Positions 1-39,640 of a stretch of 44,172 nt of DNA are shown piece by piece. Every line of letters starts with the position of its first letter. The first letter of the stretch is position 1. The notes under the pieces are model-generated. The model saw nothing but the letters and a program-made list of their open reading frames with translations, was not told the DNA's origin and made no database searches. The stretch comes from Macrostomum lignano. Taxonomy: Eukaryota. The stretch covers positions 1-44,172 of the forward strand of contig NIVC01004494.1 in the NCBI GenBank assembly GCA_002269645.1. Reading direction: 5' to 3'. The position numbers and the translations under genes were made by a program.

Positions 1-115
1 GAGACTATCGAAGTTATTTCTGACCTAAGTTCATTAGTTGCGTTTTAACAACGGCACATAAAGCTTATCACTTTCAAACTTCTGCCTAGCTACTTTAAGC
101 CTGAGATCTTCCATG

Positions 116-2330
116 TGATGTAACCGCCCTTGTCGCCTGTCCGCTCCGTAGAGAGACGAACGCATGACTAGAGGGGGCAATGACCGTAGGCTGCCTATGA
201 CCGGGCAATGACCTGACGGACCTCCAGCACCAGATTGTCCCGCCCACATGATTAGTAGCTTTGGTAGCGCTTCGTGACCAGAGGGCCAAGGACCCACATG
301 GACCCACCTGTAGCCAAGGTGCAATAGTTGGTCACTCGGTCATAGTATGACCGAGTGGCTGCCACCACTCTATGTGACCTGGCGCACCTGGATCTTTCTA
401 CCAGACCTCTCGAGGCTAGAGCCCCGCCTGGATTGGTTACCAGGGGATTTAGGCTAACAGGGGAGACGCATGCAGCCGAGTACAGGACTCTGCTTGGGGC
501 ATGATCGGGAACTCTGGGCTCAATCCTGGAGGATTTCTCAGCAGGGATCCTTTGTGGCTGTGAGCGAGGCTGACTTGCGACTTTGATTATTACTAAGAGT
601 AGTATGAGGCGAACATGTACTGTCTACAGTTTAGATTGCTCAGGGGCCGAAGGACGCGTAAGCATGGGTTGCAACCTTCCTACTGCCATTCTGTGCCAAG
701 ACTCGCTAATCCCTCTACTGCACGCACAACGCGGCCCGCAGCACGCACTCACAGGCGGGCTGTGGCGCGGGAGAGGCCATTAGCTTACCCAAACTTCCTT
801 ATGCTTTGCCACCCCGGGAGAAAGGCTTAGCAAGCCATGAGTGAAATGATGGTGAAAGATTGAATAATGATGAAGTTAGTTAATAGTTAATAATTAGGCC
901 CTTAGGCAAATAAGCAGGCAATTAGGCAGCTTCACTATTGAGTAAAATACAGCAAAAGATACGGTATCACAATTGGCTCAGCTCTCTAATCAGACAATGG
1001 AAAATAGGCAAACCCCGGATAAGCAAAGGCAATTAGAGCACAAATTAGTAGCAGGAACTTACCGGCAGCTGCACAGAGAGAGAGAGAGACGGAGTGACCG
1101 AGGGCGGCTGTAGGCTGCAGTCAGGCGGACGGTGAAGCGGCGATGCGCTGGAGCGACGAGGCGCTGATGTAGATCAGGCGATGCTGATGATGCTGGCGGT
1201 ATCAGACCGCTGGCCGATAGGCGAGCTCACTTGGGGAGCTAAGGATAACTTGGCGGTAACAGACCGCGGGCCGGCAGGGATTCGTCTTATAGACGAATGG
1301 GTCAGAACTCAATCTGACAGCAAGTCCAAAGAAGGACGAGGAGAGGAACAGAGATAAACTCAGTTGAGTATTCTCATGCCGAAATCGCTTCCTTTTATAG
1401 ACCTCACAGCCGCCTCCTCAAGGTCGTTACCATGGCTCCCTCTCTCTGATTGGCTGCCGGCAGAATGACGTCAGAATGAGTCATGATGAGAAGCATGAGA
1501 CCGGCATAGCAACATGAGAAATCGGGAAATTGCGCAATCCGGAGGTGGGGTGGGGGGATAATTGGCGCAGCGGGTGGTCGCGAAAGTGTTGCGCAAGCAA
1601 ACATTGAGAACAATAGGGCTGGGGTCGAGAACAAAGGAATTGGAAATCGGGGATCATTGGGGAAAACTGAGAACAATGGAAAAGTAAACATTGGAGAAAA
1701 GGTGATAATTAGGTGCGAAAACGAGAACAAAAGAAAGAGAAAATCGGAGAAAATGTGATAATTGGTGGGGGTCGAGAGAACAAAAGAAGCAAAAACGAGA
1801 ACAATAGAAGCGGAGGTGGGGTGGGTGTCACATGAGAAATTTGGGAAGGAGAACAATAGCGTGAGAAAAGGTTGCGCAAGAGAGGGGGATGAGTCATCGA
1901 TGAGTCACGAGGGGGAGAAGGGGTCACACGACTTGCGTCACCGTTTGGGAGTTTGAGAGGGGATGGGGAGACGGTGAGCACACAAAGTACTGAAAGTAGA
2001 CACAGGGAAAGAGGGGACAGCGCAGGAAAAGAGTGCAGAGGGAGACAAAAAAAGGAGGAGGTAGAGAAAGTACAGGAAGAATAGGGCGGGAACAGAAGAG
2101 ATAGGGTAGAGGGGGAGGTACAGAAAGGGGTAGGGGCTCCGGAAAGGCAGGTGTGGCGGCAGGAGAGACGGGACCAAGGCAGCAAGAGATGTGCAGCAGA
2201 GCGGGAGTCTCCAGGCCCGGTCGGAGACCTGGCCGAGTCTCGACAGCTCTGTGCAGAGGGTGCACGGGATAGGAGGCACTTTCGAAAAAGTTCCCATGCC
2301 CTATCCCGCGACCAGAGCGTGGTTACATCA
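116..2330 (-). mobile_element. Solo-LTR-like insertion (2215 bp) in the Polinton coiled-coil gene
   Basis: TG...CA ends with a perfect 10-bp inverted repeat (TGATGTAACC 116-125 / GGTTACATCA 2321-2330) and a 4-bp TSD CATG (112-115, 2331-2334). Removing it restores the sequence seen uninterrupted in element 2 (~16054-16240). No coding capacity is recognised. Strand is inferred from promoter orientation. Confidence 0.8.
1393..1907 (-). promoter_or_regulatory. Pol II promoter/enhancer within the LTR-like insertion
   Basis: Minus-strand TATAAAA (1393-1399) and CCAAT (1449-1453); CRE TGACGTCA (1466-1473); AP-1 TGAGTCA (1477, 1890, 1901); C/EBP palindrome TTGCGCAA (1530, 1589, 1872). Confidence 0.6.
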
Positions 2331-2523
2331 CATGTTTATTTGCAACTGGTGCATGGAGCGCTCTAATTGTTTCAGTCTGTTTTTATTCAGTTTGATCTCT
2401 GGGATCTTTTCGTCGCTGTTGATATATCGCCTGTCAAGGATGGATATCTGAGCTGATGTAAGAGCGCTGTTGCCAGAAATGGATTCACCTGCAAAGTTTA
2501 TCGACATCTTTTAATAGCAAATT

Positions 2524-3324
2524 TTAAATTACAGTTCTTTTTTCTTTGCTGATAATCACAAACTGGTAAGGCTGATTCCACTTGTCATAGCAAAGATTAA
2601 CGAATTCCTCTTGTGAAATCTTTCTGCTTGAGTTTTTTGTTGGATTTATAAAATAGGCAGGCGCAATGACCTCATTGTAAAATCTTTTTAACCTGTCCTG
2701 TGGAATGGTTGGAAACAGGAGAATCAGATTGCAGTTCCCACGAATTGTTTTGTTCGGGAGCTCGAACCAGTTCTGTGCAATGTAAATTACATTACAATTG
2801 TTATGTCGCCCTCTTGTAAAATAGTTTTCTATCTGCTTCTGTGGGCCTGTCATACAATCATCAAAGACGATCAAATGCTTTCTCCCCTTTTCTAGCTCAT
2901 CTGGTTGGGGTAGAAGTTTGGTCTTTGGATCAGCCTGTGGATCTCCATAGGTGAACACTTTAATGTTCTGCCATTTTTCATTGTCTTTGAGGTGCTTTGC
3001 ATATTCGGCAGCTACAATTTCAGGGTTACTGGGAAGGCTCATTTGGTTATTAAAACATGCAATAATGTCCTCTTTGTTCAGCTTGTTTTGAAGCCCTGCA
3101 ATCAGCATTCTATACTCATCTTGATACAGTGTGGGAGAGTAGATGTGCAGAGTGTCATAGTCGATAAATCCAGGTCTAAGAAGCATGTTAAAGACTCTGA
3201 ATGTTTTACCTGAACCTGACGAACCAACAACAATGCATCTGAAGTGACTCGGGATTGACTCATGATGAGAAAACTTAATCTGATTACGCGTCCAGTGAGG
3301 ATTGAAGTCGTTTGAAAAGTCCAT
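2524..3324 (-). CDS. A32/FtsK-like genome-packaging ATPase (Polinton), copy 1, intact
   Basis: Walker A GSSGSGKT, Walker B LIVFDD, TRGRH arginine motif, YIAQ motif; 266 aa. Confidence 0.93.
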   Translation of the reverse strand: MDFSNDFNPHWTRNQIKFSHHESIPSHFRCIVVGSSGSGKTFRVFNMLLRPGFIDYDTLHIYSPTLYQDEYRMLIAGLQNKLNKEDIIACFNNQMSLPSNPEIVAAEYAKHLKDNEKWQNIKVFTYGDPQADPKTKLLPQPDELEKGRKHLIVFDDCMTGPQKQIENYFTRGRHNNCNVIYIAQNWFELPNKTIRGNCNLILLFPTIPQDRLKRFYNEVIAPAYFINPTKNSSRKISQEEFVNLCYDKWNQPYQFVIISKEKRTVI

Positions 3325-3363
3325 TTTTTCTATGATGAAAAAAAAAATTAAATAATAAATAAT

Positions 3364-3489
3364 TTAGATGTGTCATTTCGGGACTTAGATGTCTCATTTT
3401 GGGACTTAGATGTGTCATTTTGGTACTTAATTGTGTCATTTTGGGACTTAGATGTGTCATTTTGGGACTTAGATGTGTCATTTTGAGAC
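3364..3489. repeat. Tandem repeat, 6 x 21 bp (TTAGATGTGTCATTTTGGGAC), upstream of ATPase copy 1
   Basis: Six contiguous near-identical units with no spacers. Confidence 0.95.
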
Positions 3490-3532
3490 TAGTCTTGTAC
3501 CTTTACATTTCTTGTACCCTCGGAAAGTACCT

Positions 3533-3913
3533 TTAGTCAAATTTGAAACCACTTTCTTTTTTAATGCTTGCTCTCATCTTCTCATAGACTGCAGGGTCCA
3601 CACTGTCTGGGTTTGGGGCCAGCGGGGCCAGTGGAGGTTGAATCTCTTGTTTAGGTGTTACAGTATCCTTTATCTTTTTGGCTGCTGTGGCTACACTGCC
3701 AGCCGCTTCGGCAACGTTCTTGATGTTCTCTTTGTTATATCCAATGACCTTAAAAATCTTGGCCCCTTGAGCGATCAAATCAGCAAGACCGTTCCCAGAG
3801 CGTTCTTTTCTTGGATAGTGGCCTGCAGGGAAAAGTCCAGATCCGCGTTTAATAAGATTAAGTTCCTCTTTGTCATAGTATTTGTCCACGTCTTTCTCAA
3901 AAATAATCGGCAT
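3533..3913 (-). CDS. 126-aa putative virion core/membrane-active precursor (adenovirus pVI-like by analogy), copy 1
   Basis: ATG in AAAAAGATG context at 3913; same length as the element 2 copy. GSG/GNG motifs precede an amphipathic segment LADLIAQGAKIFKVIG; ends ...SG-FKFD. The function is inference. Confidence 0.6.
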   Translation of the reverse strand: MPIIFEKDVDKYYDKEELNLIKRGSGLFPAGHYPRKERSGNGLADLIAQGAKIFKVIGYNKENIKNVAEAAGSVATAAKKIKDTVTPKQEIQPPLAPLAPNPDSVDPAVYEKMRASIKKESGFKFD

Positions 3914-3929
3914 CTTTTTAAATAGAAAT

Positions 3930-5140
3930 TTATTTTTTGTTAAACCGTGAAAGCAAAAGTTCTCTTGCTCTTTTATCGATATATTTTCTCTCAAGCATTT
4001 TGTCCAGGATGTTGACAAATTCTTTTCTATTCTCGTCTTTCATTCCGGTCTTTGCCGCTCCTAGAAGAACAGCTAACCGCTTGTAGAATTCAGGCATGCC
4101 TTTTCCGGAAGAGCTTGGAGGTGATTCGAATGATTGGTCAGAGGAGGAACTGTCATGTGGCGCTTGTCTTTGTTGAGGTGTGAATACTCTGTCATTGATT
4201 CGCTTCATTCGTTCTGGGGAGAGCCGCTCTAATTGTCGCCAAGTATCAGGGTTTGTATCTTTGTACTGGGAAATCTCATTTGGCCCTGCTTTTTCAAGCG
4301 CTTCTAGTACTTGTTCGGGTGTGATTTGTTGCTGTGGCGGTGGAGGTTGTTGTGGTTGTGGTTGTGTTTGTGGTTGCTGTTGTGGTTGTTGTAGTTGTTG
4401 TTTTGGTTGCTGCTGTTGTGGTTGCTGCTGTTGTGGCTGTGGTTGTTGTGGTTGTTGTCTTATGACCTCTTCTTGATCCGGCAAACCAAACCATTGTTTA
4501 AAGTATTTGTATTTTCTAAACCTGTTCAAGTCAATCCTGTTTTCATGTAAAACTTTCAAAACACCGTTGTTCTTGAGAATGTCTATGTCCCTCTCTAAAG
4601 CGAAGGTAACCAGATCTCTATAATTCTTTAATTGCTTCTCGATATTTTTTCCTGATTTTTAGTCATGTAGTCGAGTAAACTTTGAGTGAAGGGGATTCGT
4701 TTAGTTTCTGCGCCTTTATTAATTGAAATAGTTTCCTTCGTCACTTCAATGTTGTAATCCGCCGGTTCCCCGGTGATATTTTTTCGCCAGGCGCTAATTC
4801 CAAATATATATTTTCCATCATCCGTTACGGGGCCAAAAAAGTTATCCGTCACTTTCATCTGCACTGGTTGTCCTGGTTGCTGAGCCTGTGGTTGTCCCGG
4901 TGAAGATGGGATTTTACCCAATGTGTTTTGCAACTGGCTCTCTTGAATATCATCAATTGTTTCCTTCACAGTGTCGATGTTTTTCTTCGCTTCTGTGTAT
5001 CCAGGTTTGTGAAATTCGGTGGCTGCTTGGACGAATTCATTGTAAGATTGTTGTTCTTTGTTGATTAGTCCGGTAACTCGTTTCTCTGCTTGCGCCAGCT
5101 TTTCTAGTTCAGAGATATGATATGAACTTTTCCGCTTCAT
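3930..5140 (-). pseudogene. Gln/Pro-rich Polinton core protein (~403 aa), copy 1, 1-nt frameshift near 4640
   Basis: ORFs 4628-5140 and 3930-4559 join into the reading frame seen in copy 2. C-terminal GKG-MPEFYKRLAVLLGAAKTG...EFVNILDKMLE resembles a conserved Polinton structural ORF. Confidence 0.75.
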
Positions 5141-5170
5141 TTCTTATTTTATTTTATTTTTAGTTAAAAA

Positions 5171-6457
5171 ATGAACGACCCACTGACACCAGTTTTCTAC
5201 AAAATTAACAAGCCTATTTTGAGTGATGATAGCACAATCAAAGCGACACAAGTTAGAGTTCCGAGTCACGAGAACCAGAATGAAACTAATTTGGGTCCAG
5301 GTCAAACACTGACATTTACATACAATGGATGTTCGTCTCTGGTTAGTGTGCACAGTCTTAAGAGCGGCTTCCATATGACATTTCAATTCAAGACAAAAGG
5401 TGGTGCGGATGCGGCTCGTGCTAACGTTGACAAGCATGATGCGGATGTGGCTCTGATCAGTAACTTTTGGGCGTACATGTTCAAGGAGTTTAGTGTATCG
5501 AATGGGAGCACTGAGTTGGAGCGAATCGCCAACTTTGGAATTGTCTATGACGCTCATTGTTTGATCGAGAATCCTGATTTTATTCAGTTGGGAAGTGGTG
5601 CGGGTTTTATCGCAGATGAAAAAGAAGGAGATATCAATGACAGTGGCTATAAAAAGAGGAAGAAGAGATACAACTATGCATTGCAAGGTGCTGATGATGC
5701 TGCTAAAAACCCGCTGTATCGGTCTGTTGATGTATTTGTACCACTGAGATTCATGAGTGGATTCTGTAATACATTTAATCGACTGACTAGTAACTTTAGC
5801 TACACCTTTAGGATGACTAGAGATGATCGCAGTAGAGTGTTGTGGACTGGGGCGGACCACACAAGGATGGAGGTGAAGCTAACCGGAATCGAGCTGTATT
5901 TGGAAGTCATTGAGCCAAAGACTGCACTAAAAGCGGATTATCTTAAGGCAATAGAGAAGGACATTGATGTTGCATACACAGCCTACATGTGTCGAGATGA
6001 GCGAAACGAAACTAGAACAAATATCTGCATTAAAGAGGGATCATGCAGCAATCCAAGGTATATCATTATTAATATGAGAAACCCAAATAGCATCATACGC
6101 TACATGCATGGAGACGTGCGGTCCATTCAGCATGAAATCAGTGATAATCTTTACCCTGCACTGCCACAAAATGGAGATTTCAGTCAAAACAAGATTAGCA
6201 AATTTTACAGCGAGTTGGTCGACTTGGCTGTGAAAGAGAACAATGGAATTGCTATCACTGCTCTCCAATATGGAACTCTATATCCGATGTTTGGCGCTGA
6301 TGTGTCTGCCAGACAAATGCCTACTGATAACAGCCCTGTGAATATCGTGACTAACATTGAAAGGACTACCGCAACACCCGTGGACCTGTACATTATCTAT
6401 GCATTTGAGAGGAAGGTGAAGCTTAACATGATCAACAATTCATCCAGTAAAGTTTAA
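5171..6457 (+). CDS. Major capsid protein (double jelly-roll, Polinton PY-type), copy 1, intact
   Basis: 428 aa, directly upstream of the penton. C-terminal PRYIII...YPALPQNGDFSQN..S..YSEL pattern recalls Polinton MCPs. Confidence 0.85.
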   Translation: MNDPLTPVFYKINKPILSDDSTIKATQVRVPSHENQNETNLGPGQTLTFTYNGCSSLVSVHSLKSGFHMTFQFKTKGGADAARANVDKHDADVALISNFWAYMFKEFSVSNGSTELERIANFGIVYDAHCLIENPDFIQLGSGAGFIADEKEGDINDSGYKKRKKRYNYALQGADDAAKNPLYRSVDVFVPLRFMSGFCNTFNRLTSNFSYTFRMTRDDRSRVLWTGADHTRMEVKLTGIELYLEVIEPKTALKADYLKAIEKDIDVAYTAYMCRDERNETRTNICIKEGSCSNPRYIIINMRNPNSIIRYMHGDVRSIQHEISDNLYPALPQNGDFSQNKISKFYSELVDLAVKENNGIAITALQYGTLYPMFGADVSARQMPTDNSPVNIVTNIERTTATPVDLYIIYAFERKVKLNMINNSSSKV

Positions 6458-6479
6458 ATATTTTTTTGTGGGTGAAAAA

Positions 6480-7343
6480 ATGGAAGCCATAGCCGAAAGA
6501 CTAAACAACATTGTTTCACACTCTAAGGAGAGCATTCCTATTACAATAACCGGGCGAATTAATGACTCAAACGGGATGTTTGTTGAAAAATTAGAGCAGG
6601 CGATTCGCCTGGATCCAGGCGCTAATTACCATGTCTATCTTAACGACTTCACCGGTTGGTCAAACGTTCCTAATGTGATGGCAGCAAATAATAAGTTTTA
6701 TTACAAATGGAAAGGTGCAGCAGCAGACCCTGTGGTATTCCATGTGAGCACGCAAAGTGTGGATACCTACAATAACTTTCTAGAAAATGTCTTTACTAAG
6801 AGAGGCCATTTTGAGACACCTGATGCGAGTAAGCCAGAGAAGAAACTGTTCCCTGTCAAACTAACCTATGATCTCACTGTAATGAGAGTGGTCATGCAAG
6901 TTCACAAAAATGCGGAGGTTGAGTTTAAAGATGACACTTGGTATAGGGAACTAGGATTCGAGAAGAAAGTTTATAAGGCAGAATCCGCGGCGCAGACCGC
7001 CACTCAAGCATCGAGGACCGTTAAAATGGCCCGGGAAAATGTAAGCGGTTTGTTCTTAGCACCCAATATTGCAGACATTGTAAAGGGTTTGAATATTCTA
7101 ATCAGAAGCAATCTCAGTCTTGATTGGGTATTTAAGGGAAAGCGAACGAATATTTTGTACAACATCTCCAACTCTGTTGCTGGAGGACAGATGGTGGTAG
7201 AGAAACCAAATCCAGTGAAAAGAGTTGTATTGAGTAATAAAGAGATTCACGAGATTGTGCTACAGTTTGAGACTGAAGATGGGATGGGCGTTGATTTTAA
7301 TGGGGAAGAGTTTGTATTGACGTTGATCATTGAAAGAATGTAA
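6480..7343 (+). CDS. Minor capsid (penton) protein, copy 1, intact
   Basis: ATG at 6480 (AAAAAATG). Motifs WSNVPNV..ANNKFYY and NILYNI...G..VVEKPNP...I.EI.L.FETEDG..VDFNGE fit Polinton single jelly-roll pentons. Confidence 0.85.
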   Translation: MEAIAERLNNIVSHSKESIPITITGRINDSNGMFVEKLEQAIRLDPGANYHVYLNDFTGWSNVPNVMAANNKFYYKWKGAAADPVVFHVSTQSVDTYNNFLENVFTKRGHFETPDASKPEKKLFPVKLTYDLTVMRVVMQVHKNAEVEFKDDTWYRELGFEKKVYKAESAAQTATQASRTVKMARENVSGLFLAPNIADIVKGLNILIRSNLSLDWVFKGKRTNILYNISNSVAGGQMVVEKPNPVKRVVLSNKEIHEIVLQFETEDGMGVDFNGEEFVLTLIIERM

Positions 7344-7347
7344 GAAA

Positions 7348-7587
7348 TCACAATTGTCTAATGATTTCTACAAAGTTATAGTAGCTGTCGTAATCTTTTA
7401 CATAGGTTACTCCATACTTATGAAACCAGTGTCTTTGGAGAGCTAGATTAATATTAGGGACATTGATATCAACGTCGGGCCAATATTTTCTCATGTACTC
7501 GCTGCATTCTAGTTTGCATCGGTACTTACTCTTGTAATTAGGCTCGTGCGCTTTGTAATAAGAACCTGGAGAGACAACTGGAAACAT
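7348..7587 (-). CDS. 79-aa Tyr-rich hypothetical protein, copy 1
   Basis: ORF is open and conserved in both elements, with AAAAATG start context; no family recognised. Confidence 0.7.
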   Translation of the reverse strand: MFPVVSPGSYYKAHEPNYKSKYRCKLECSEYMRKYWPDVDINVPNINLALQRHWFHKYGVTYVKDYDSYYNFVEIIRQL

Positions 7588-7599
7588 TTTTAGAGAAAA

Positions 7600-7964
7600 T
7601 TTAATTTTTTTTCAAAGGGTAAGGACCCTGGGTTAGGGGATTTAAAGTTTTAGGGATCTGGTTTCGCCGCTTTGGATTGAATGTGGGCCCCATGGGGAGA
7701 AGAATGCAGATTATTTTCTGATTGTTTCGAAGATGCTATGGGTGGATGTCGGTGTCAGTGAGCATAACAGGTATCAGTTGACACCTGCTCTGATTCTGTC
7801 AGGGATAATATGGATGGATTTAATAGGATTATGGAGGATGTTTTGTGAGCAAGTGCGGCCCCTCCCCTTTTTCATGATTCTGTCAGGGATAATATGGATG
7901 GATTTAGGTGGATTATGGAGGACGTGAAAAATTTTGTCCCAGAAGCCCCCTCATGTCTTCTACT
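7600..7964. repeat. Right terminal region (TIR-like) of element 1 with 2 x 84-bp subterminal repeats
   Basis: Repeat units start at 7791 and 7875. Homologous to 21382-21842; ends CTACT. Confidence 0.75.
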
Positions 7965-8298
7965 GGCAGGTGTAATCAATTATTATTACTATTTACTTAC
8001 GATAGGCATTCTGTCTTCTGCTGCATGCTATGTTGTTGCCACGTTGCTTACCACATGAAAAACTATAATAAACTAATAAACTATATAGCGACTATAATCT
8101 GTCGCTTCAGTCCTTCAGTTGTTTATCAATGTAAACTGTTCAGCAGTCTTTCTAATTCTTTATTTGGTGCGTGCACAAAGGAAAGCACGCGTGGAACTTG
8201 TACATACGCAAAAGCTGCGCTCCCTCAGCAAATAGCAGTTACGCCACCCCTTTTCAAAATGCAGCTGTTGCGCTTGGCTGCGAATAATCCTTCCCAAC

Positions 8299-8787
8299 TC
8301 AAACGCCCCTCTCTACCCCCAACTCTTTCAGCAGTCTTCCTAATACCTCGTTTGGAGCACACAAAATAAACCCCGCTCCCGAGCACTCCGCGCACCCGCC
8401 CTCTCTTCCCAAACACCCACCCTCAGCGCCCACCCCCAACCCCAGCTTTTTCTTACCAAAAATAACCGCCTTGACTAATTTCCTAGCAATCGACTCACGA
8501 AATCCGCTTGAAATCCCCATATTGTCGAGTCTCCTGAGCATTTCTTTGTCCCAGCGATTCTTCTCCTCAGGAAAATCTCTATATTTAACGTCGTGCCACA
8601 TGCAGACAGAGTCTAGCTCGTTCACAGGCTCATGCCCAGGATTTGGGTTGTCGTTACCATCCAGCTGTATTTCAAGTGGATTCAAAGGCCCGCAATATTT
8701 GTACCCGGGAACTGTCCAGCCTTTGTTTGGATGAGGAAGCTTTTCTATCAGTCCATGTGAATCTATTTTACCACCAGAGCGTTGCAT
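8299..8787 (-). CDS. Parvovirus VP1u-type phospholipase A2 domain protein
   Basis: Ca-binding loop PGYKYCGPLN and catalytic D..CMWHDVKY are intact; K..LGLG motif near the C-terminus. Confidence 0.88.
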   Translation of the reverse strand: MQRSGGKIDSHGLIEKLPHPNKGWTVPGYKYCGPLNPLEIQLDGNDNPNPGHEPVNELDSVCMWHDVKYRDFPEEKNRWDKEMLRRLDNMGISSGFRESIARKLVKAVIFGKKKLGLGVGAEGGCLGREGGCAECSGAGFILCAPNEVLGRLLKELGVERGV

Positions 8788-8817
8788 TATTTTATTTAAA
8801 ATTTTATTTTTAAATAA

Positions 8818-9870
8818 ATGACAGATCAGAAACTAAAAAAACTCTACTACAGCGACAAAGGATTCTTTGTAGGCAAAAATGCCGTTAGTAAACTCATGGA
8901 GCTGAGTAAGGAACCAAAAGCTACAGTAGAAAAATGGCTCTCTAAGCAGGCTGTCTTTCAAGTCTATTTCCCACCAGTAAAATTTGAAAGGCCCCATTTC
9001 AGTATTTATAAACCTAATGAGGCGCACCAAGCAGATCTTCTGTTTCTCCCCAATGACTCAGGCTACAAGTATGCTCTTACAATTATTGACATTGCTTCCA
9101 GATATAAGGAAGCTCGCCCACTCAAGACGAAGAAGTCAGAGGTTGTTGCCAGCGCACTCCAAGATATTTATAAAAACTCACCCCTTAGTTACCCTGAAAT
9201 CTTTATGACCGACCCGGGTAAGGAATTCATGGGTGCAGTCAAATCCCTTATGGAAAAAAATACAAAAATTCGCTATGGCAGAACAAACTTGCACAGAGAC
9301 CAGGCTTTTGTGGATAGATTCAATTTAGCTCTAGCCAAGAGACTATTCACTAAGCAGACAGCTGAAGAACTCAAACTGAGTGCGGGGCAGTACTATAACA
9401 AGTGGACAGAAAGACTCCCCGCTGTTATAGAGCAACTGAACAATGAAGTCACACGCTTGACTGGATTGAAACCATCCCATGCAATTAAACAAGACACTGT
9501 CGAACTTAAGCCATCTCATAGAACAGACAACAACACTACAACCCCACACAACACACACAACACAAAACACACCTCGAACTACCCTAAGCTTCCAGGAGTT
9601 GAATCACCATACATACTGACAAACTCTGAGTTTCTACGCTTTTTATATCTACCTGGAGAGCTACAGAAGGACACTAAAAGAAGAGCTACAGATCCATACT
9701 TCAGCCTTGATGTACATAAAAAAGACCTCCGACTCCGGTGACTATTACTTTTTATCCAGGCCTTTAACCCTAAATCCCCCACGCGGTCATTCACTAGAGC
9801 TGAACTCCTAGTGATACCAGCTGACACAGAAATTAATTCAAATATTAAAATATTAAATGACAAAGATTGA
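8818..9870 (+). CDS. Retroviral-type (RVE) integrase; C-terminal tail disrupted near 9720-9765
   Basis: HQADLLFL (D), FMTDPGKEF (D) and QAFVDRFN, where the third acidic residue is D rather than E. The tail RSFTRAELLVIPADT lies past TGA 9739-9741 in the same frame and ends at 9870. Confidence 0.88.
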
Positions 9871-20258: not shown

Positions 20259-20277
20259 ATATTTTTTGGGAAAAAAA

Positions 20278-21140
20278 ATGGAAGCTATAGCCGAAAGACT
20301 AAATAATATTGTTTCTCACTCTAAGGAGAGCATTCCTATTACAATAACTGGGCGAATTAATGACTCAAACGGGATGTTTGTTGAAAAATTAGAGCAGGCG
20401 ATTCGCCTGGATCCAGGTGCTAATTACCATGTCTATCTTAACGACTTCACTGGTTGGTCAAACGTTCCCAATGTGATGGCAGCAAATAATAAGTTTTATT
20501 ACAAATGGAAAGGTGCAGCAGCAGACCCTGTGGTATTCCATGTGAGCACGCAAAGTGTGGATACCTACAATAACTTTCTAGAAAATGTCTTTACTAAAAG
20601 AGGCCATTTTGAGACACCTGATGCGAGTAAGCCAGAGAAGAAACTGTTCCCTGTCAAACTAACCTATGATCTCACTGTAATGAGAGTGGTCATGCAAGTT
20701 CACAAAGATGCGGAGGTTGAGTTTAAAGATGACACTTGGTATAGGGAACTGGATTCGAGAAGAAAGTTTATAAGGCAGAATCCGCGGCGCGGACCGCCAC
20801 TCAAGCATCGGGGACTGTTAGAATGGTCCGGGAAAGTGTAAGCGGTTTGTTCTTAGCACCCAATATTGCAGACATTGTAAAGGGTTTGAATATTCTAATC
20901 AGAAGCAATCTCAGTCTTGATTGGGTATTTAAGGGAAAACGAACGAATATTTTGTACAACATCTCCAACTCTGTTGCTGGAGGACAGATGGTGGTAGAGA
21001 AACCAAATCCAGTGAAAAGAGTTGTATTGAGTAATAAGGAGATTCACGAGATTGTGCTACAGTTTGAGACTGAAGATGGGATGGGTGTTGATTTTAATGG
21101 GGAAGAGTTTTTATTGACGTTAATCATTGAGAGAATGTAA
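20278..21140 (+). pseudogene. Minor capsid (penton), copy 2, 1-nt frameshift near 20750
   Basis: GGAACTAGGATTC in copy 1 versus GGAACTGGATTC here. Confidence 0.85.
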
Positions 21141-21144
21141 GAAA

Positions 21145-21381
21145 TCACAATTGCCTAATGATTTCTGCAAAGTTATAGTAGCTGTCGTAATCGTTAATGA
21201 CTACTCCATACTTATAAAACCAGTGTCTTTGGAGAGCTAGATTAATATTAGGGACATTGATATCAACGTCGGGCCAATATTTTCTCATGTATTCACTGCA
21301 TTCTAGTTTGCATTGGTACTTGGATTTGTACAATGGATTAGGCTGAGTATAATAAGAACCTGGAGAGACAACTGGAAACAT
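21145..21381 (-). CDS. 78-aa Tyr-rich hypothetical protein, copy 2
   Basis: Homologous to 7348-7587; frame preserved despite substitutions and a one-codon indel. Confidence 0.7.
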   Translation of the reverse strand: MFPVVSPGSYYTQPNPLYKSKYQCKLECSEYMRKYWPDVDINVPNINLALQRHWFYKYGVVINDYDSYYNFAEIIRQL

Positions 21382-21842
21382 TTTTAGAGAAAAAATAGAT
21401 TTTTTTCAATGGGTAAGGACCCTGCGCTGATGATTTAAAGTCTTAGGGATCTGGTTTCGCCGCTTCGGATTGAATGTGTGGAGAAGAATACAGATTATTT
21501 TCAGATTGTTTCGAAGATGCTATGGGTGGATGTCAGTGGATTATGTCTGTGCAGTGAGCATAACAGGTATCAGTGGACACCTGCTCTGATTCTGTCAGGG
21601 ATAATATGGATGGATTTAATGGGATTATGTTCGAAGTTTTCGGAGCAAGTGCGGCCCCTCCCCTTTTTCATGATTCTGTCAAGGATAATATGGATGGATT
21701 TAATGGGATTATGGAGGACGTTTTGTGAGCGAGTGCGACCCCCCCTTTTTTCTGATTCTGTCGGGGATAATATGGATGGATTTAATGGGATTATGGAGGA
21801 CGTGAAAAATTTTGTCCCAAAAGCCCCCTCATGCCTTCTACT
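21382..21842. repeat. Right terminal region of element 2 with 3 x ~84-bp subterminal repeats
   Basis: Units start at 21587, 21671 and 21753; ends CTACT at 21842. Confidence 0.75.
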
Positions 21843-22441: not shown

Positions 22442-22652
22442 AAAAGTCGCAGAAGCTCTTCAGCGTCGCTGTATAATCTTTAGTGCATCACTTCTAAGTC
22501 GATGAGCATGCGTTTTTTATTCACCCAGAAATGACGATCCAGCAGTCTGTTTAAGGCCGGTAGCGACGACTCTGTAACGGCGTCCAGAACGCCTCAGAAG
22601 TGACGCACTAACGATTCTACAGTGACGCTAAAGAGCTTCTTCTGCGACTTTT
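22442..22652. repeat. Imperfect inverted repeat (foldback/MITE-like remnant)
   Basis: 22442-22478 is the reverse complement of 22613-22652 apart from a 3-nt indel and three mismatches; surrounding GCGAC-rich motifs. Confidence 0.55.
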
Positions 22653-23022
22653 ATGCGACTGCAGAACGCCGCTGAAACGCCGGAAATGTGACTCTGATTC
22701 ATCAAGCGACGCAAATGCGCTTCAAACACAACTCAGCGACTCTAATGCGACTCTAAAACGTCTCAAATACGACTCTATGGCCCCAGAATCGTCATAATGA
22801 TAGTGCGTGTTTTAAATGACTTGTTATTGTGTAAGAAGCGCATTTGTCAATGGTTTGAACACTAACACGGCTAACACGGCTAAAGACCATGCCTTCGCAA
22901 GTAATGCTACGCACAGAATACCTGTGTTATATGATGCTAATTGAGTGCATTTTATTATCAGTTATTGGGATTACATTTTCAGTCAAGTCCAGTTCAATCA
23001 GTCGCGAACCAATTTAGTTACA

Positions 23023-23708
23023 TTAGGATTCTGTTGGAACTAAATCAAATATCTCAATTGCTAGTGGTCCTCCACATTTCTGTCCGTATTGGGCATTCTG
23101 ACATTGCTGGTTACAAAACCTTTTCGCCATCGGATTTCCATTAATTATTTGATTGCCACAGTAGCATCGGTTGCCGTTTGCTAGACCAAATAATTTTCTG
23201 TAGATTTTAAAACAACTTGAAGCACATTCTTTTTGGTTCATGACTTGGAAATTCTTTTTTACTTCTTTATGTAGCACCCTTTCCGTAGGGGACCAAAAAA
23301 AGCATCCTTTTGACGGTGCTGAAATAGCGAAATGGAGCGTGACTCAATAATTCTTTTGGCGGCTCACTTGATATTTACTAGATGACATGTAGTAAGAGCA
23401 TCTCAACTTACCTGGCACCAATGGAATGGTAACACCTGTCACCTTGTAGACGCTCATAACATTCAAACCACCACATCTTGTCTCTTGTTTTCCACTACAT
23501 CTTTGATTGCATCGATAGCGAGGCACTTCAATACTATGGAGTTCGTTTCCACAAAAGCATTGATTTTTGGTTATTCCAAAAAACTTTTGTTCCATAACTT
23601 GACAATTGGGCAAACAGAGATAAGGAGCCATTTTAGTGAAGTTTTGGCTAAAAAATTTTAGCGCCCACTGATCATTAATACGATGCACAAAGCAACCCAC
23701 ATAGTTTT
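23023..23708 (-). CDS. Two-WSC-domain protein, paralog 1 (exons 23708-23412 and 23318-23023; 5' exon unresolved)
   Basis: YVGC...C..NC...FFG...QCFCG...C..RC.G...CGG WSC pattern in each exon; GTAAGT donor and TTTCAG acceptors, phase 1; AATAAA downstream. Confidence 0.8.
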
Positions 23709-24789
23709 CTGAAATGTTTTTATAGATTAGAGACGTATTTACTCAACTGTGTCATATACTTACGCAGTTACATAAAAAACTGCATTTAAACAAACTACTA
23801 AAATCTGACTTAGCCAGCAAAAAAGCGGGAAGAAGACCCAGGCAGTAGACGTCGTCGCGGCTTGCAATTTAATTTAATAGTGCAATAGTGGGTACTTGAT
23901 AATCAGTGGTTTTCAAGCTTTAATACAAAAAGTTGGATGAGTACAAAGAATGGGTAAAAGGGTAAATGGGTAAAAGAAAGCGCAAACTTCAGCATACTAC
24001 CTACGTAAAAATTCGAATATTCATTACGTACGCAGTATAACAACTCATACAAACACTGAGTCTCTCACCATTAGCTACGAAGACTCCCTCAACAGCAACG
24101 AGAAGAATCACACCGAAAGTAATGTACAGCATGATTGCCTTTTGGTTCAATCGTTCAATAAAAAATTATTTCAGCAGCATCGAGGCCTCAACTCTTTTAT
24201 GGAAAAAATTTGAATTTGAATTCTTAAAATTATTTGTCCACGTGGGTGGAACACGTGATAGTTTTACGTTAACAGTGCCACGAAGAAATCGATTTTGAAT
24301 TTAAAATATCACAATTTTTCTCGTAGCTAAGTAACTTTTTCCTATCTCTTCAAATGGCATGTGCATTTCTTTTAGAATATGTAAAGTCACTTCTAATAAA
24401 AAATTCAAATTCCATTCAAATTCCATAAACTTGCATAACGTTGCATGCAGGTTTTTGTAAAATTTTCATTTTAGCAGAGAAAAACAATTCTTAGGATTTT
24501 TTATGACAATCGTATTTGATTGCTTAATACGAGCTAAGATGATTATTATTTCACTTTACTTTTCAAAATCTGTTGTTTTATGTTTATATTTATATTTTAG
24601 CTGAGTAAATACATAACTTTATCTATCAATTTGAAAATTAATTAAAACATTTAAAAACTCAACCACATCTTGAATAGGCCCTGATTGCTTGAATAAAAAT
24701 GTAAAGATCCACAGATTTGTGTAAAAATAGTAAAAGCTTTTTTTACGTCATTAATTTTGCCTCAGCTAGGTGTAGCGACTTCAGTTTTA

Positions 24790-25780: not shown

Positions 25781-26314
25781 TGAGTCCTGAATAAAATTTT
25801 GAATATGGTTAGATTTAGAGTTAGAGTTAGAGTTAGAATTAAGGTTGGTTCAACATGCAAAGTGTGCAATATATTTGATTTAGCGCGTAGGAGCTTCAAG
25901 GGTGAGAGTATGTAAGTGTACAGCAGCATCTGCTATGGCATGGTTTACGCGTACGGTAATTACCAAATAAAGTGCGACAAGCCGTCTTGTATCATCCTCA
26001 TTGTCAATAGAAACAGATAATGTATCGCTTCAACAGTGTCTTGTATTAGGGGACAGACTTGGACAGAGACTTAGATGACGCAACCGACCCATTGCTTCGA
26101 TAGAGAGTTCGTACGGGGCCATGCCTCTATAGAGACATATGTATTGTAGGCTATTGTATAAATACGAGTTATTTCGAAAAAGAAATCTACAGCATATTCA
26201 AACCAGTTATTAATTGGGCTTAAAGGTGCCTTAAAAGTGGCCCTGCTGATTCTGCAATGCCAAAACATCTAATTAAATACTACTCCACACAAAATGATCC
26301 CGAACTCTCCTAAA

Positions 26315-27334
26315 ATGGGGAAAGGCAGAGCTCTATCGCCTGAGTCGTGTAGGAAAATCAAGGCCCTGTTCGACCAAGGAGTTTCCCAGCGTGCCAAAGC
26401 CACGCAGCTGGGAAAGTAGAAAACATGCGTCCAGCAAACACTCAGGCGCCTCAGGAGCACTGGCAGCACAGGCTATGCCTCAAGACCTGACAGGGCACCG
26501 AAAACTGACCACCGACTGGATCGCCGCATTGTGCGAATGTCCGAGTCCAACCGTCGGCTCACCGCTGTGGACATCAGCCGTGAACTTCAGGTGCCCAGTG
26601 GTGTCCAGCTGCACCCCATGACTGTCCGCCGCCGTCTGGTAGCTGCTAGACTGCCGACAACAAAAACCGAAAGCGGCGCTGGAACTAGGCGAAGCAGCAT
26701 GCAAGCTGGACACCCCAGGACTGGGCAAGGACATCTGGAGTGACGAGAGCAAATTTTCCCGCACTGATTCTGATGGTCACCGTTGTGTGCGCCGCCGAGC
26801 TGTTGAGTAATTTGATCCCAGGTGAACCAAATTGGTATCATGAAGCATGGAGGTGGCAATGTCATGGTGTGGGCTGCATTCTCCAGAGTTGGACCTGGGC
26901 CAATAACTCGCATTGAGGGCATCCTGGACAGTCAGAAGTACCGTGACATCCTCAGCAGCCACCTATCAGAGGCAGCAGATGCGCTGCCACTGGGTGCAGT
27001 GAACAACTGGCAGTGGGACAGTTTCAACAGGACAACGATTCAAAGGACACCCCAACCCCCAAGGTTGTGAAGGCATGCATGGCTTGCTGAGAACAACAGC
27101 TGCACCGTGGACTGGCCAGCGCAGTCATCAGATCTCAATCCGACTGACAATCTGTGGAACTGGGTCGAGCGGGACCTACAGAGGCAGCAGCCAACTTCCT
27201 TTGATCAGCTGACCGTATCATTGAGGACTCGTGGGCTGCCATCCTGACAGAAGTGTGCCAGAAGCTGGTGGACAGCATGCCTAGGCGGTTTCAATGCTTT
27301 GATTAACTCAAAAGGACATACTGCAAAGTATTAG
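26315..27334 (+). pseudogene. Tc1/mariner (DD34E) transposase, degraded
   Basis: RIVRMSESNRRLTA...TVRRRL; WSDESKF; KHGGGNVMVWAAFS; QQDND; WPAQSSDLNPTDNLW; ends GHTAKY-stop. Multiple frameshifts. Confidence 0.88.
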
Positions 27335-27352: not shown

Positions 27353-29152
27353 TGTCCTGGCCTGGGCTGCGGACCCTCCGCAGCAGGTCCAGTATGCGTT
27401 CTCCCACTGACTAAGCAGCACCGATTGTTTCCCTCACTGACTCACCCGAGTCACCGCTACTGCACGCTCCACATAGCTTCATATGCTACTACGCATCCCC
27501 TGTACGTTTGTGTTCGCGCCATACGTTCGTGTTCGCATATACGGTTCGGGCCTGGATCCGCTCCCAGGCAGAGCTTTGGACGAAACGTCAAGACTTACTT
27601 CTAAGTCATTACAACGGCGACGAGCTCAGCCTTTAGCCGCATTCCGGAGTTATCAAGGGACTCCGACTTCGAGTTTACATCGAGAGACTTGAACAATACT
27701 TCGTATGCGCTGAAGTCACTGCGGAGCCCACCAAAGTGGCCACACTTTGCACTGCCATCGGAGAAACCGCCTACACGGTGTTTCGCAACCTATGTCAGCC
27801 GGACAAGGTTTCAGAAAGGTCATACGACGGCCTAAAGAAAATTCTGCAAGACCATTACGCTCCCGCGCCATCCGAGATCGCCGCACGCTTCAAGTTCCAG
27901 CAGAGAATGCAGTTGCCGGGAGAGGACTTCGCCACCTTCCTGGCAGGGCTGAAGGCAGCCACTCTGCACTGCAACTTCGGCACGGCGCTGGAGGAGAGAC
28001 TGCGAGACCAGGCCGTCTTCGGTCTCAGGAACTCTCAAAGCTGGAAATCTCAAAGCTTACTTACGCCCTGATGGTCGCGACGGTGTCATCGATGGAGGCA
28101 GCGCAGCGCTACGCGAGCGAGATCGCGCTCAGAACGCCGGAGACCGTCGCAGCCATCAGCAAGGAACTGCTGCTGTCCTCGGGCGCGCTCGTGCACTACA
28201 ACCCAGACTTGCCACTGTACCTGGAGTGTGACGACTCGCCATACAGTCTGGGGGTGGTCCTGTCGCACAAGATCGGCGGCCAGGGGCAGGCGATTACCTT
28301 CGCGAGCCGCAGACTGACCCCCGCTCAGCGCAACTAAGCGCAGCTGGACAAAGAGGCGCTCGCCATCATGTTCGGCCTGCACCGGTTCCACCAGTTCCTG
28401 TACGGCAGGCACTTTGTCATCGTGACGGACCACCAGTCCCTACTTGGACTGCTTGGTGAGCGCAAGGCCATCCCGGCACACGCCGCAGCTCGCATGCAGC
28501 GCTGGACCATCCGCTCGCCAGCTTCGACTACAGCCTGGAGCTCAGACCACGGCGCCGCACGGCAACTGCGACTCGCTCTCTCACCTTCCGCTCGGCACCC
28601 AGTTCATCGAGGAGCCAGCTGTGAACTGCCTCCTCATCGACGAAGACGTCGGTTCGGCCCTGACGGCAAAGGTAATCTCGCAGAGGACGCGGACGGACGC
28701 GCAGCTCGGCAGAGTGCTGCTGTGTCTGCAGTCGGGCGCCCGGATCCCAGCTGCAGGGGGCCTCGAAGCGTTCTCTAGCCGACAGCACGAGCTGAACATC
28801 GAGCAGGGCTGCCTGCTTTGGGGGTCCAGAGTCATCGTTCCGTCCGCCCTCCGCTCGAAGGTCCTCAGCGAACTGCACCAGGCCCACCCTGGAGCCAGCC
28901 GCATGCGGGCGCTCGCTCGCAGCTACGTGTGGTGGCCCGGCCTGGACAATGACGTGGAGGACTCCGTCAAGGCGTGCGAAACCTGCCGGCTCAACCAGGC
29001 CGATCCGCCCAAGGCGCCTGTGCACCCGTGGCCCTTCTCATCGGAGCCGTGGTCCCGGCTACACGTCGACTTCGCTGGCCTGTCGACGGCCGCACCTTCC
29101 TGGTGCTTATCAACCCGCACAGTAAGTCAAGACTTACTTTTAAGTCATTACA
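27353..29152 (+). mobile_element. Ty3/gypsy LTR retrotransposon, doubly internally deleted
   Basis: TSD ATAAC (27348-27352, 29153-29157). 5' LTR TGT...ACA at 27353-27613, PBS-like ACGGCGACGAG, Gag (EIAARFKFQQR...ERLRDQ), RNase H (LECDDSPY...EALAI...TDHQ), integrase Zn domain (LHQAH...WWPG...CETC). Only the last 27 bp of the 3' LTR remain (29126-29152). Confidence 0.92.
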
Positions 29153-29805
29153 ATAACAGTGCATTTTCTTTACTTATTTCCCTAGTACACTGTATTCATG
29201 TATGGTCTTATTTCAATGTTAAACCTAAAACTGTGCTTCCCATTCAAATATCAGCTTTTCGAACTGAAAATGGCTGGAAAGTGAACTAAAACACCATACA
29301 AAAATCATAAAATAATATCCCTACAACTTTTAATTCCAATTTAATACTTGAATTTAGCCTAAAGACAAACATGCCAAAAATAACATAATTTTACTTAGTG
29401 GTTTTAATTCATTGTGCGCCACGGTATGTAAGTAGATGTAAAAGTAGACAATACACGAGCGTACATAAAGAAGCAGATATTTAAATTTAGCCGGCTTAGG
29501 ATAGCATCTTGGCAGACTACTTACTTTTTTATGAAAGTAGAATAATATGCGTTTTTGCGACAAAAAATCTTAAAACCCAATTACGAGCCAAGTCTACCTG
29601 CGCATTGCCTCCATTGCCTTTTAGGTAATGATGTCAAGACAGTTGAAATAAGAAATGACGGAGTCAGAATAGTATACAGACTTTAAATAATTGTATTGAA
29701 CGCTGTTAATGGTGTTTGAACTTTTTATTTTATTATCAATTATTGAGATCACATTTTGAGTCCAGTTCAGTTTAGTTAGTTGCGTTCCGGTCAGTTTAGT
29801 TGAAT

Positions 29806-30496
29806 TTAGACCTTTATAAGGACTAAATCGAATATCTCAATTGCAAATGATCCTCCACATTTTAGACCGTATTGGGCATTTTGACATTGCTGGTTACAAT
29901 AATCTTGGGTCAACGCAGTTCCCCTAATTATTTCATTGCCACAGTAGCATCGGTTGCCGTTTGCTAGACCAAATAACTTTGCGCTTTTTTTAAGGCAGCT
30001 TCTGGCACAATTTTCCTGGTTCATGACTGGGAAATTTTCTTTCATTTCAAAATTTAGCACCAGTTCAATGGGGTCCCACATAAAGCATCCCTTTGACGGC
30101 GCTGAAATGGCGAAACATGAGCGAGAAAAAAATTTTGGCGGCTAGCTAACTTGACACTTACTAAATGACATGATGTAGTTAAAAAACTGTTTCACTTACC
30201 TGGCACCAATGGAATGGTAATGCCTGTCACATTGTAGACGCTCATAGCGTTCAAACCACCACATCTTGTCTCTTCTTTTGCACTACATCTTTGATTGCAT
30301 CTGTTTGGTGTAATTTTCAGAGTTAAGAGATCGTTTCCACAATAGCATTTATTTTGGGTTATTCCAAAAAACCTTTTTCCCAAAACTTGACAGTTGGGCA
30401 AACAGAGGTAAGGAGCCATTCTAGTGGATTCTTGACTAAAAAATTTTAGAGCCTCGGATTCACCTCTCTTGTGCACAAAGCAACCTGCATAATGTT
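29806..30496 (-). CDS. Two-WSC-domain protein, paralog 2 (exons 30496-30200 and 30101-29806)
   Basis: Same 297-nt phase-1 exon and splice sites as paralog 1; both exons open. Confidence 0.8.
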
Positions 30497-39100: not shown

Positions 39101-39640
39101 TGTACCTGCATGGCCAATGCGATCTAGTCCCAGCAGTGTCCCTTATCATCGGCTATTACTTCGAGATTGACAGCAAAAAGCCACTAGTTGGCAGGTAAGT
39201 GCAAAGCCCCTTCTAGTCGGAAGCCCGATTTCGAGAGTCCCGGTGTGGTGAGCCAGGACGTACGGGCTGGTGGCAGCGAGTTAGCTAATCTGCGGATTAA
39301 CTAATTTTTACCTTCAAAATTCTCCCTGCTTGTCTCTCACTGTCCCTCTCTTAGCTATAGGACCTAGACTGCTCGCCACACGATCAAGCTACCAAGGGGC
39401 TGACCATCTGACAGGAGTGGGGGGCCAGGACTCTAATTGATTTATTTCTGAGACCTGAGGCCCGAAGGCTTCCCCACAAGGGGGCCGAAAGGTCGAAACC
39501 CATCACATAAATGGTTGATATTATTCCTGGCCTATAATTATTAAAAAAGAGTTGCAAAATAAGATATACCAGAGGAAAATTTGATAGCTGCTATTTTTTG
39601 CAGATCTTAAATAATTTCATTGAATGCTGTTCATGACGTT

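Follow-up and report, generated by a model that had tools for sequence, protein, structure and literature searches.

The window analyzed here, a stretch of 44,172 nucleotides from Macrostomum lignano (contig NIVC01004494.1), contains the structural arm of a Polinton twice, and the question is how two such copies came to lie in tandem and to differ so unevenly. Both copies have the same orientation, at a spacing of 13.9 kb. Positions 2331-7925 of copy 1 matched 16164-21721 of copy 2 at 89.2% identity, and 1-116 matched 16054-16168 at 98.3%, with 2 differences in the first 116 bases. The right terminus of both copies was CTTCTACT (7957-7964 in copy 1 and 21835-21842 in copy 2), in agreement with the initial annotation of a structural module present twice in one orientation with a common terminus. 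The 40 bases preceding the two right ends matched at 38 positions and the 40 bases following them at 10. Both right ends are thus exact and of the integrase type, each with its own flank. Copy 1 (1-7964, plus strand) is visible as a right arm truncated by the window edge, with about 5.75 kb of viral DNA lacking any replication gene and a 2.2-kb insertion; its left end is located outside the window.

Polinton/Maverick (Polintoviricetes) features found were a protein-primed DNA polymerase B (pPolB), an rve integrase, a double-jelly-roll MCP, an A32/FtsK packaging ATPase and an adenovirus-type cysteine protease, and both copies are members of one Polinton family. Adintoviruses, in the available text of Starrett et al. 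(2021, PMC8502044), also encode pPolB, rve integrase, adenain-type protease, A32 ATPase and double-jelly-roll MCP, and share with this locus a probable penton, a parvovirus-type PLA2, a protein X-like segment and an AG...CT-type end. However, they are described there with one PLA2X, while here PLA2 and the X-like segment each have their own ORF. Among the markers of the Adintovirus Alpha and Beta classes (PF03175-like or divergent PolB; PLA2X; GasderminX, Cupiennin), the PLA2 was found apart from the X-like ORF. The Polinton ends listed in the accessible part of PMC8097293 are of the (AGT)2 or (AG)3 type, and the end motif here is not an exact match. Polintons/Mavericks have paired terminal repeats and a 6-bp target duplication; neither was present within the window, which includes neither left end.

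In copy 1, the 5' part of a coiled-coil ORF (2331-2507, minus strand; the rest at 1-115, with a frame break near 45) is followed by the A32-type packaging ATPase (2524-3324, minus; open, 266 aa, PF04665 above cut-off, E 3.6e-06). Upstream of the ATPase are six 21-bp tandem repeats (3364-3490), where copy 2 carries a different array (17198-17281). A 126-aa ORF without an identified family (3533-3913, minus) is open, and a Q-rich ORF of about 403 codons (3930-5140, minus) has a frame break near 4635, near codon 169. The double-jelly-roll MCP (5171-6457, plus; 428 aa) matched PF21738 at E 3.3e-05, below the curated cut-off. Its predicted model (pLDDT 52) gave the PBCV-1 capsid as best Foldseek match (E 5.9e-11), and the top matches were PBCV-1, iridovirus and virophage MCPs. 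The following 287-aa ORF (6480-7343, plus) is a probable minor capsid protein (penton; a single-jelly-roll protein in Polintons) by position and size only; it had no Pfam or NCBIfam match, its Atlas look-alikes were viral and unnamed, and its model had a pLDDT of 36. The frames of MCP, ATPase and this penton candidate were all open, as the initial annotation had noticed. The non-coding right end (7344-7964) contains 84-bp repeat units and the terminal motif.

Copy 2 begins with an open parvovirus-type PLA2 ORF (8299-8787, minus; 162 aa, PF08398 E 8.9e-13, motifs present). The rve integrase (8818-9834, plus; PF00665 above cut-off) has a stop at 9739-9741, with homology continuing to 9834, and one conserved catalytic acidic position differs from its relatives, the best of which was 64% identical. 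An open 151-aa ORF (9857-10312, plus) has an adenovirus protein X-like segment (PF05829 E 4.6e-05, below the curated cut-off). For the pPolB with an EndoVII-like insert (10448-14271, plus), 347 of 829 candidates proved to be relatives at E<=1e-20, the best being 46% identical. The gene aligned to all eight references across about 3.1 kb, and eight frame breaks were seen with each of the eight (11.3-13.4 kb), with two further breaks near 11.0-11.1 kb and no in-frame stops. The PF03175 profile matched none of four window pieces and one of three relatives scanned; EndoVII was found in all three. The adenain-type cysteine protease (14314-14715, plus; open, 133 aa) matched PF00770 above cut-off and the adenovirus proteinase at E 0.003, with the motifs present. 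Then come an open ORF with a hydrophobic hairpin segment (14720-15505, minus; 238-261 aa, no named family) and the coiled-coil ORF (15522-16331, minus), which is open and has an 84-bp internal duplication. The packaging ATPase (16362-17147, minus; PF04665 above cut-off) has lost its stop; at a frame break near 16361 the reading frame passes into the coiled-coil ORF, giving a 541-aa frame. The 126-aa ORF (17347-17727, minus; no family found) is open, and the Q-rich ORF (17744-18955, minus) has a stop at codon 323 (17987-17989). In the MCP gene (18986-20258, plus), codon 100 is a stop (19283) and gaps cluster at 19326-19342; the probable penton gene (20278-21140, plus) has a frame break near 20750. 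The non-coding right end (21141-21842) has 2.6 copies of the 84-bp unit and the terminal motif, followed by non-viral flank. Broken capsid genes with intact protease and PLA2 in copy 2, and a Q-rich gene broken at different sites in each copy, were thereby confirmed, although the PLA2 tail may be cut.

Divergence between the two arms is not uniform. A 1.25-kb block around the ATPase (2411-3667 versus 16244-17481) was 76% identical, and the arm to its right 95%. The probable crossovers that bound the block lie in the coiled-coil ORF, near its codon 30, and in the 126-aa ORF, near its codon 82. Fourfold-site differences were 47/70 in the ATPase, 12/43 in the 126-aa ORF, 4/15 in the coiled-coil part, 13/152 in the MCP, 8/112 in the penton and 9/133 in the Q-rich ORF (30/397 for the last three). 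Uniform divergence, named beforehand as the outcome that would speak against recombining variants, was rejected over these six genes (chi-square p=1.7e-30). The JC distance was 1.69 (lower bound 1.0) in the block versus 0.08, and a two-state HMM placed the divergent block at 2414-3667 (BIC 963 versus 1141 for one rate). The ATPases differed at 36 of 262 compared codons (pS 0.76, pN 0.068) and the MCPs at 11 of 421 codons plus one stop, close to the earlier counts of about 35 and 10 residues. The nearest relatives, drawn from unlinked short contigs, were 64-78% identical for the ATPase and 69-74% for an MCP piece, compared with 87% and 98% between the two copies; judged by these relatives, the ATPase does not appear to be a faster gene. 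MCP is also more conserved than ATPase in nematode Polintons (median 92% versus 81% in the available text of 10.1101/2023.08.22.554363), so a swap could not be established from protein identity alone; it is the silent sites that establish it.

To the right of the block, the patchiness proposed initially was modest. The patch at 5245-5320 stood, with 13 differences in 76 columns against 1/74 and 3/140 in its flanks, and the scan test on synonymous sites within the MCP gave p=0.014. For MCP plus penton, the 25-site scan gave p=0.014, the 50-site scan p=0.21 and the longest-run test p=0.36, and for the whole region one rate was favored by BIC and two by AIC. Across the 434 bases at 3909-4342 the two copies had a single difference, a private stop of copy 2, and 140 consecutive synonymous sites were identical (p=0.0016). 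Local constraint on silent sites is an alternative source of signal outside the ATPase block. The shared arm is thus mosaic, with two or more levels of divergence, overwhelmingly so for the ATPase block and modestly elsewhere, which supports two variants with a recombinant relationship.

The five genes tested all had pN/pS below neutral (Fisher p from 2e-06 to 7e-70). All five being under purifying selection, most divergence arose while the elements were functional, and the main exchange therefore preceded decay. This indicates separate integrations of recombinant variants and not a host duplication or two alleles. A segmental duplication of one element, or an assembly join of two alleles, could draw on the other tandem duplications in the window (41.5-44.2 kb at 93%; three WSC-gene copies). 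However, the similarity ends at the terminal motif without a common flank, and saturated silent sites together with purifying selection are impossible between alleles or dead duplicates, making either origin extremely improbable. In particular, the differing flanks and the saturation of silent sites in one block make a join of two haplotypes of one insertion unlikely.

Probably, two Polintons of the same family integrated separately; block exchange would have produced the mosaic, copy 1 would have nested in copy 2, and the two then decayed independently. While the family was active, one lineage would have swapped in the 1.25-kb block by homologous crossovers within the two flanking genes. The swapped block would comprise the end of the 126-aa ORF, the upstream repeat array, the whole ATPase and the first 30 or so coiled-coil codons, and its donor would have exceeded the other lineage in silent-site distance by a factor of about ten or more. 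Shorter exchanges would account for the divergent patches of 50-100 bp and the 434-bp near-identical tract. Two sequences alone tell neither which copy is the recombinant nor whether exchange preceded integration or conversion followed soon after.

The exchange might also have taken place in situ, if distant variants had integrated and gene conversion between the neighbors had homogenized most of the right arm and spared the ATPase block. The 434-bp tract and the run of 140 identical synonymous sites point in this direction, pairing is possible given the orientation and spacing, and mosaicism via tandem integration is proposed in the accessible part of 10.64898/2026.10.13.758929. However, 8-12% of synonymous sites still differ in MCP and penton, at a pN/pS near 0.1, which requires functional divergence after the last exchange; the copies have no lesion in common, and the one difference in the tract is private to copy 2. 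Such homogenization in place is unlikely.

After integration, each copy would have decayed separately through stops, frame breaks and a retroelement-like insertion. Six genes are visible in both copies; copy 1 had two of them broken and copy 2 had four. The overlap was one gene, where chance predicts 1.3, and no inactivating lesion common to both was found. Copy 1 carried 4 private changes at conserved columns and copy 2 carried 6 (p=0.75), so decay gives no order of the insertions. Judged from its reading frames, copy 2 would be unable to replicate, integrate or build capsids alone. Could the pair jointly supply a full gene set in trans, as the proposal of complementary lesions implied? In favor of this, copy 1 keeps open frames for the capsid genes and ATPase, and copy 2 for the coiled-coil, protease, PLA2 and X-like ORFs. 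The left arm of copy 1, beyond the window edge, may be intact, and the pPolB breaks, all of them frame breaks, could partly be read errors. However, the window contains no intact version of the Q-rich ORF, pPolB or integrase. The integrase lesions are point changes, which errors of the indel type would not produce, and no left terminal repeat accompanies the genes of copy 2. Since the lesion overlap matches chance, complementation is unsupported and very unlikely; the pattern is that of random decay and not of a division of labor.

Frame breaks concentrated in pPolB (8 of 13, p=0.003), a clustering not predicted by uniform random decay. Because of this pile-up, the copy 2 lineage might have lost its polymerase first and spread with polymerase supplied in trans. 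The family would then keep helper-dependent members, with old copies as landing and mixing sites; copy 1 would have integrated into copy 2 and short tracts been exchanged in place. This course of events is quite unlikely; if true, such arrays could release new mosaic Polintons.

At the junction (7965-8298) there was no terminal repeat, and no left terminal inverted repeat of copy 2 was found within the window. Sequence 8139-8190, past the PLA2 stop, repeats 8327-8376 within the PLA2 ORF (p=0.002), so less than 175 bp separate copy-2 DNA from the end of copy 1. Positions 7965-8138 could not be assigned to either virus or host. The initial annotation placed both integrations at one putative hotspot; the arrangement is compatible with an insertion of copy 1 into copy 2, or beside copy 2 followed by deletion, in repeat-rich DNA. 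In the favored account of separate integrations, copy 1 probably inserted within the left arm of copy 2, which would account for the missing left terminal repeat next to the PLA2 gene of copy 2. A side-by-side insertion with later deletion of the left end of copy 2 departs from this account at the junction step only, and 7965-8138 would then be leftover host DNA. The ambiguity of this segment agrees with it, as does the description in the available part of PMC8097293 that most vertebrate Mavericks lack discernible terminal repeats. Against it, the end of copy 1 is exact, viral DNA starts within 175 bp, and the 6-mer following copy 2 was not found between 5690 and 11818. It is a possible but less probable course.

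Module exchange and tandem integration have been published already in the available texts of PMC8502044, where virion modules are reported as exchanged between adintovirus lineages, 10.64898/2026.10.13.758929 and 10.1101/2023.08.22.554363, and the locus overturns nothing. Polisuvirus integrations include degraded endogenous tandem elements, also in animals (anemones), as far as described by Barth, Ha and Aylward (bioRxiv 10.64898/2026.10.13.758929), and likewise have tandem homologous morphogenic modules, a layout proposed to promote mosaicism. However, replicase and morphogenic modules are swapped there between distant groups, while the swap here would lie inside the morphogenic arm, within one family, with crossovers mapped to a few codons. 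Nematode Polintons (Jeong et al., bioRxiv 10.1101/2023.08.22.554363, available part) likewise show a single-gene replacement in one host, read as recombination, in which pPolB was replaced by a 16%-identical form, compared with an 87%-identical ATPase here. A literature search that reached few subscription papers found no intra-family ATPase swap mapped at the nucleotide level. The locus would be a clean, codon-resolved case of homologous recombination within one animal Polinton family, in which crossovers in the genes on either side exchanged the packaging ATPase independently of the capsid genes, in parallel to phage modular evolution. This fits the view that Polintons form recombining populations of viruses and is a caution against classifying them by a single gene. 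The locus would gain weight if other genomic copies showed neighbor conversion or polymerase-dead, helper-dependent members.

The insertion at 116-2330 splits the coiled-coil ORF of copy 1 and is absent from copy 2. It is 2,215 bp long, GC-richer (53% GC), and has 10-bp inverted ends (TG...CA) and a 4-mer duplicated at 112-115 and 2331-2334. No Pfam match (3 of 14 listed frames scanned), no Rfam match and no second copy within the window were found. Solo LTRs have TG...CA ends, a 4-6-bp target duplication, no internal coding region and a full-length parent elsewhere; the insertion may be a solo-LTR-like retroelement remnant. EMALE virophages of Cafeteria (PMC8547959) and cryptophyte PLVs (PMC12220804) differ in having protist hosts, belonging to other virus classes and being mostly intact, according to the accessible texts. 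Apparent frameshifts in them were unconfirmed upon resequencing, which advises caution for this locus. These sources likewise describe recombinant elements, discordant trees within the morphogenesis module, and retroelements and solo repeats nested in endogenous viruses.

Self-comparison of the window detected one long same-strand repeat between 2331-7925 and 16164-21721 (89.2% identity), preceded by a shorter one between 1-116 and 16054-16168 (98.3%). The sequence CTTCTACT formed the right terminus of both copy 1 (a Polinton right arm) and copy 2 (its same-orientation relative), at 7964 and 21842, in agreement with the tandem structural modules sharing a terminus that were proposed in the initial annotation. 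The bases leading up to the two ends were identical between the copies at 38/40 positions, compared with 10/40 beyond them. A third CTTCTACT at 15626 displayed no broader likeness to the ends and was taken as chance. The 2,215 bp at 116-2330 are present in copy 1 and absent from copy 2; this insertion (53% GC, inverted ends of 10 bp, a duplicated 4-mer) had no other match anywhere in the window and may be a solo-LTR-like remnant.

Divergence between the copies was patchy, as had been noticed by eye. The global alignment contained 503 mismatches in 5,564 ungapped columns, with 16-25 mismatches in every 100 columns over the ATPase; to the right of 3674 the count was 0-17. Codon comparison gave 36/262 differing residues for the ATPase (pS 0.76, pN 0.068), 11/421 for the MCP (pS 0.123, pN 0.014) and 7/286 for the penton (pS 0.082, pN 0.010), close to the earlier estimates of about 35 for the ATPase and 10 for the MCP. 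Fourfold sites differed at 47/70 positions in the ATPase versus 30/397 in MCP, penton and Q-rich gene together, and heterogeneity across six genes was strong (p=1.7e-30). A two-state HMM run on 1,377 synonymous sites placed the main divergent block at 2414-3667 and short divergent patches at 4610-4657, 5035-5134 and 5249-5300, the last being a patch already singled out by eye, where 13/76 columns differed. A three-state HMM was no better by BIC. The block ends inside two ORFs, the coiled-coil one (close to codon 30) and the 126-aa one (close to codon 82), as would be expected of homologous crossovers within conserved flanking genes. The tandem arrays upstream of the ATPases also differed in their repeat units. 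Right of the block, the longest identical run spanned 141 synonymous sites (p=0.0016) and a 25-site scan gave p=0.001, the Q-rich gene being the main source of this clustering. The large ATPase swap is therefore secure, while the fine patchwork right of it is likely but weaker, since the tests for MCP and penton were modest (p=0.36, 0.014 and 0.21) and BIC preferred a single rate there.

The contrast between ATPase and MCP is not a gene-rate effect. Copy 1 ATPase was 64-78% identical to eight close relatives, and the MCP, in the piece compared, 69-74% identical to six, while identity between the copies was 87% for the ATPase and 98% for the MCP. The copies were sisters in both trees (support 93/99 and 100/100), with summed branch lengths between them of about 0.19 versus 0.02 in the ATPase and MCP trees. 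In nematode Polintons the MCP is reported to be more conserved than the ATPase (Jeong et al.), so the argument for a swap was drawn from silent sites and not from protein identity. The relatives are located on short unlinked contigs, hence they could not serve as a third parent and neither copy was assignable as the recombinant.

Replacement changes were deficient in all five genes tested (Fisher p 2e-06 to 7e-70), indicating that most differences arose while the elements were functional. A duplicated dead element is thereby excluded, and two alleles of one locus become implausible. No lesion was common to both copies, and in a 434-bp tract (3909-4342) the sole difference was a stop private to copy 2; an exchange that preceded integration or closely followed it fits, and late conversion does not. 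At 266 columns invariant among relatives, private changes numbered four in copy 1 and six in copy 2. Decay was similar in both, at roughly 1% or less, and these private changes gave no difference between the copies from which to order the insertions.

In copy 1, the coiled-coil ORF had lost its frame near 45 and was interrupted by the insertion, and the Q-rich ORF was broken near 4635. In copy 2, lesions were detected in the Q-rich ORF (stop at 17989), MCP (stop at 19283, gap cluster 19326-19342), penton (break near 20750) and ATPase (stop codon lost near 16361). The Q-rich gene was thus broken at separate sites and the copy 2 capsid genes were disrupted, both as initially annotated. The copy 2 integrase carried a stop at 9739, past which 3/5 relatives still aligned to 9831-9834, and deviated at a catalytic position that 95% of 59 relatives conserve. 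Its pPolB contained eight frame breaks with 8/8 references, two more with references aligning further upstream, and no in-frame stop. The suggestion that the lesions complement each other was unsupported: one of the six shared genes was broken in both copies, against 1.3 expected, and the only replication genes seen in the window, those of copy 2, are dead, the copy 1 counterparts lying beyond its edge.

One result runs against random decay of each copy after integration. Frame breaks were in excess in pPolB, which held 8 in 3.8 kb, whereas the other coding DNA (13.2 kb) held 5 (p=0.003), a comparison in which ORFs without relatives could conceal breaks. The polymerase could have been lost first, in a lineage that received help in trans. 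Part of the breaks could instead be read errors; apparent gene fragmentation in EMALEs was unconfirmed on resequencing, and caution about frameshifts introduced by assemblies was expressed for a coral polintovirus (PMC11131425). As a test of early pPolB death, its conserved columns were compared: 14/169 were mismatched, a higher share than in any of 61 relatives (maximum 6.5%), though the profile was made from these same relatives, which are only ~45% identical, and the rate equals that of the integrase (1/16).

A left terminal repeat of copy 2 was found neither by self-BLAST of the window, nor among the 25 longest of 1349 repeat-finder pairs, nor when local alignments were compared with those of shuffled sequence (p 0.17-0.96). 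A segment inside the PLA2 ORF (8327-8376) recurs at 8139-8190 (p=0.002), so copy 2 DNA reaches to less than 175 bp from the exact end of copy 1; this internal repeat suggests that the PLA2 ORF formerly had a longer, repeated tail. The simplest reading is nested integration, in which copy 1 would have landed within copy 2's left arm, leaving the remaining left arm upstream of the window. Possibly the copies were inserted side by side and a deletion followed. A mis-join via the terminal repeat could have attached the wrong family member, and the configuration would persist.

Exchange of virion modules between lineages (PMC8502044) and of pPolB among nematode Polintons (Jeong et al.), tandem integration of degraded elements (10.64898/2026.10.13.758929), retroelements nested within endogenous viruses, and mostly degraded vertebrate Mavericks (PMC8097293) have already been described. 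To these the locus adds an unusually well-resolved ATPase swap within one family.

Copy 2 (7965-21842) encodes PLA2, an rve integrase, a protein X-like ORF, pPolB, an adenain-type protease, two unnamed ORFs, an A32 ATPase, a 126-aa ORF, a Q-rich ORF, MCP and a probable penton, the same gene set as described for Polintons (PMC8502044, PMC11071308); the available text of PMC11071308 makes no mention of the EndoVII insert. A structure model of the MCP (pLDDT 52) matched double-jelly-roll capsids (best E 5.9e-11). The penton was assigned from position and size, its single-sequence fold model being unusable. In the Atlas the 261-aa ORF matched only unnamed clusters, the NCBIfam scan yielded nothing beyond weak coiled-coil-type or spurious matches, and an Rfam scan of 1-24000 gave no match. 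Named pPolB relatives came from corals and a mollusc; these and the WSC-domain genes in the flank point to an animal host. No further copy of the family was found from the same genome, the closest MCP relative being 78% identical.

CpG depletion varied between genes, with o/e 0.43-0.49 in the ATPase (2524-3324), integrase (8818-9834) and pPolB (10448-14271) and about 0.7 in the MCP (5171-6457). At its 3' end (15522-15720) the coiled-coil ORF is GC- and CpG-rich (57% GC, CpG o/e 1.1), unlike the remaining element, and this part is possibly acquired DNA. A short low-complexity T/H/N-rich stretch (9480-9620) follows the integrase core.

The minus strand carries three WSC-domain gene segments at 22949-23958, 29677-30734 and 39601-40625, paralogues sharing 72-78% identity, with PF01822 in two of the three ORFs scanned; they form a host tandem gene cluster adjoining the Polintons. 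A GC-rich Ty3/Gypsy-type fragment (27600-29130) matched RT-RNaseH and integrase zinc-finger domains, and 27588-27616 is repeated, by eye, near 29126-29154. The region 26290-27330 we take, by eye, to be a decayed Tc1-like transposase. The tandem duplication at 41438-44172 (about 1.2-1.4 kb, 93%), in which 90 bp are doubled exactly at 41438-41621, is either recent or an assembly stutter. An imperfect inverted repeat 600 bp right of copy 2 (22442-22652; arms of 51-63 nt, 84-86%) is possibly a MITE or hairpin.
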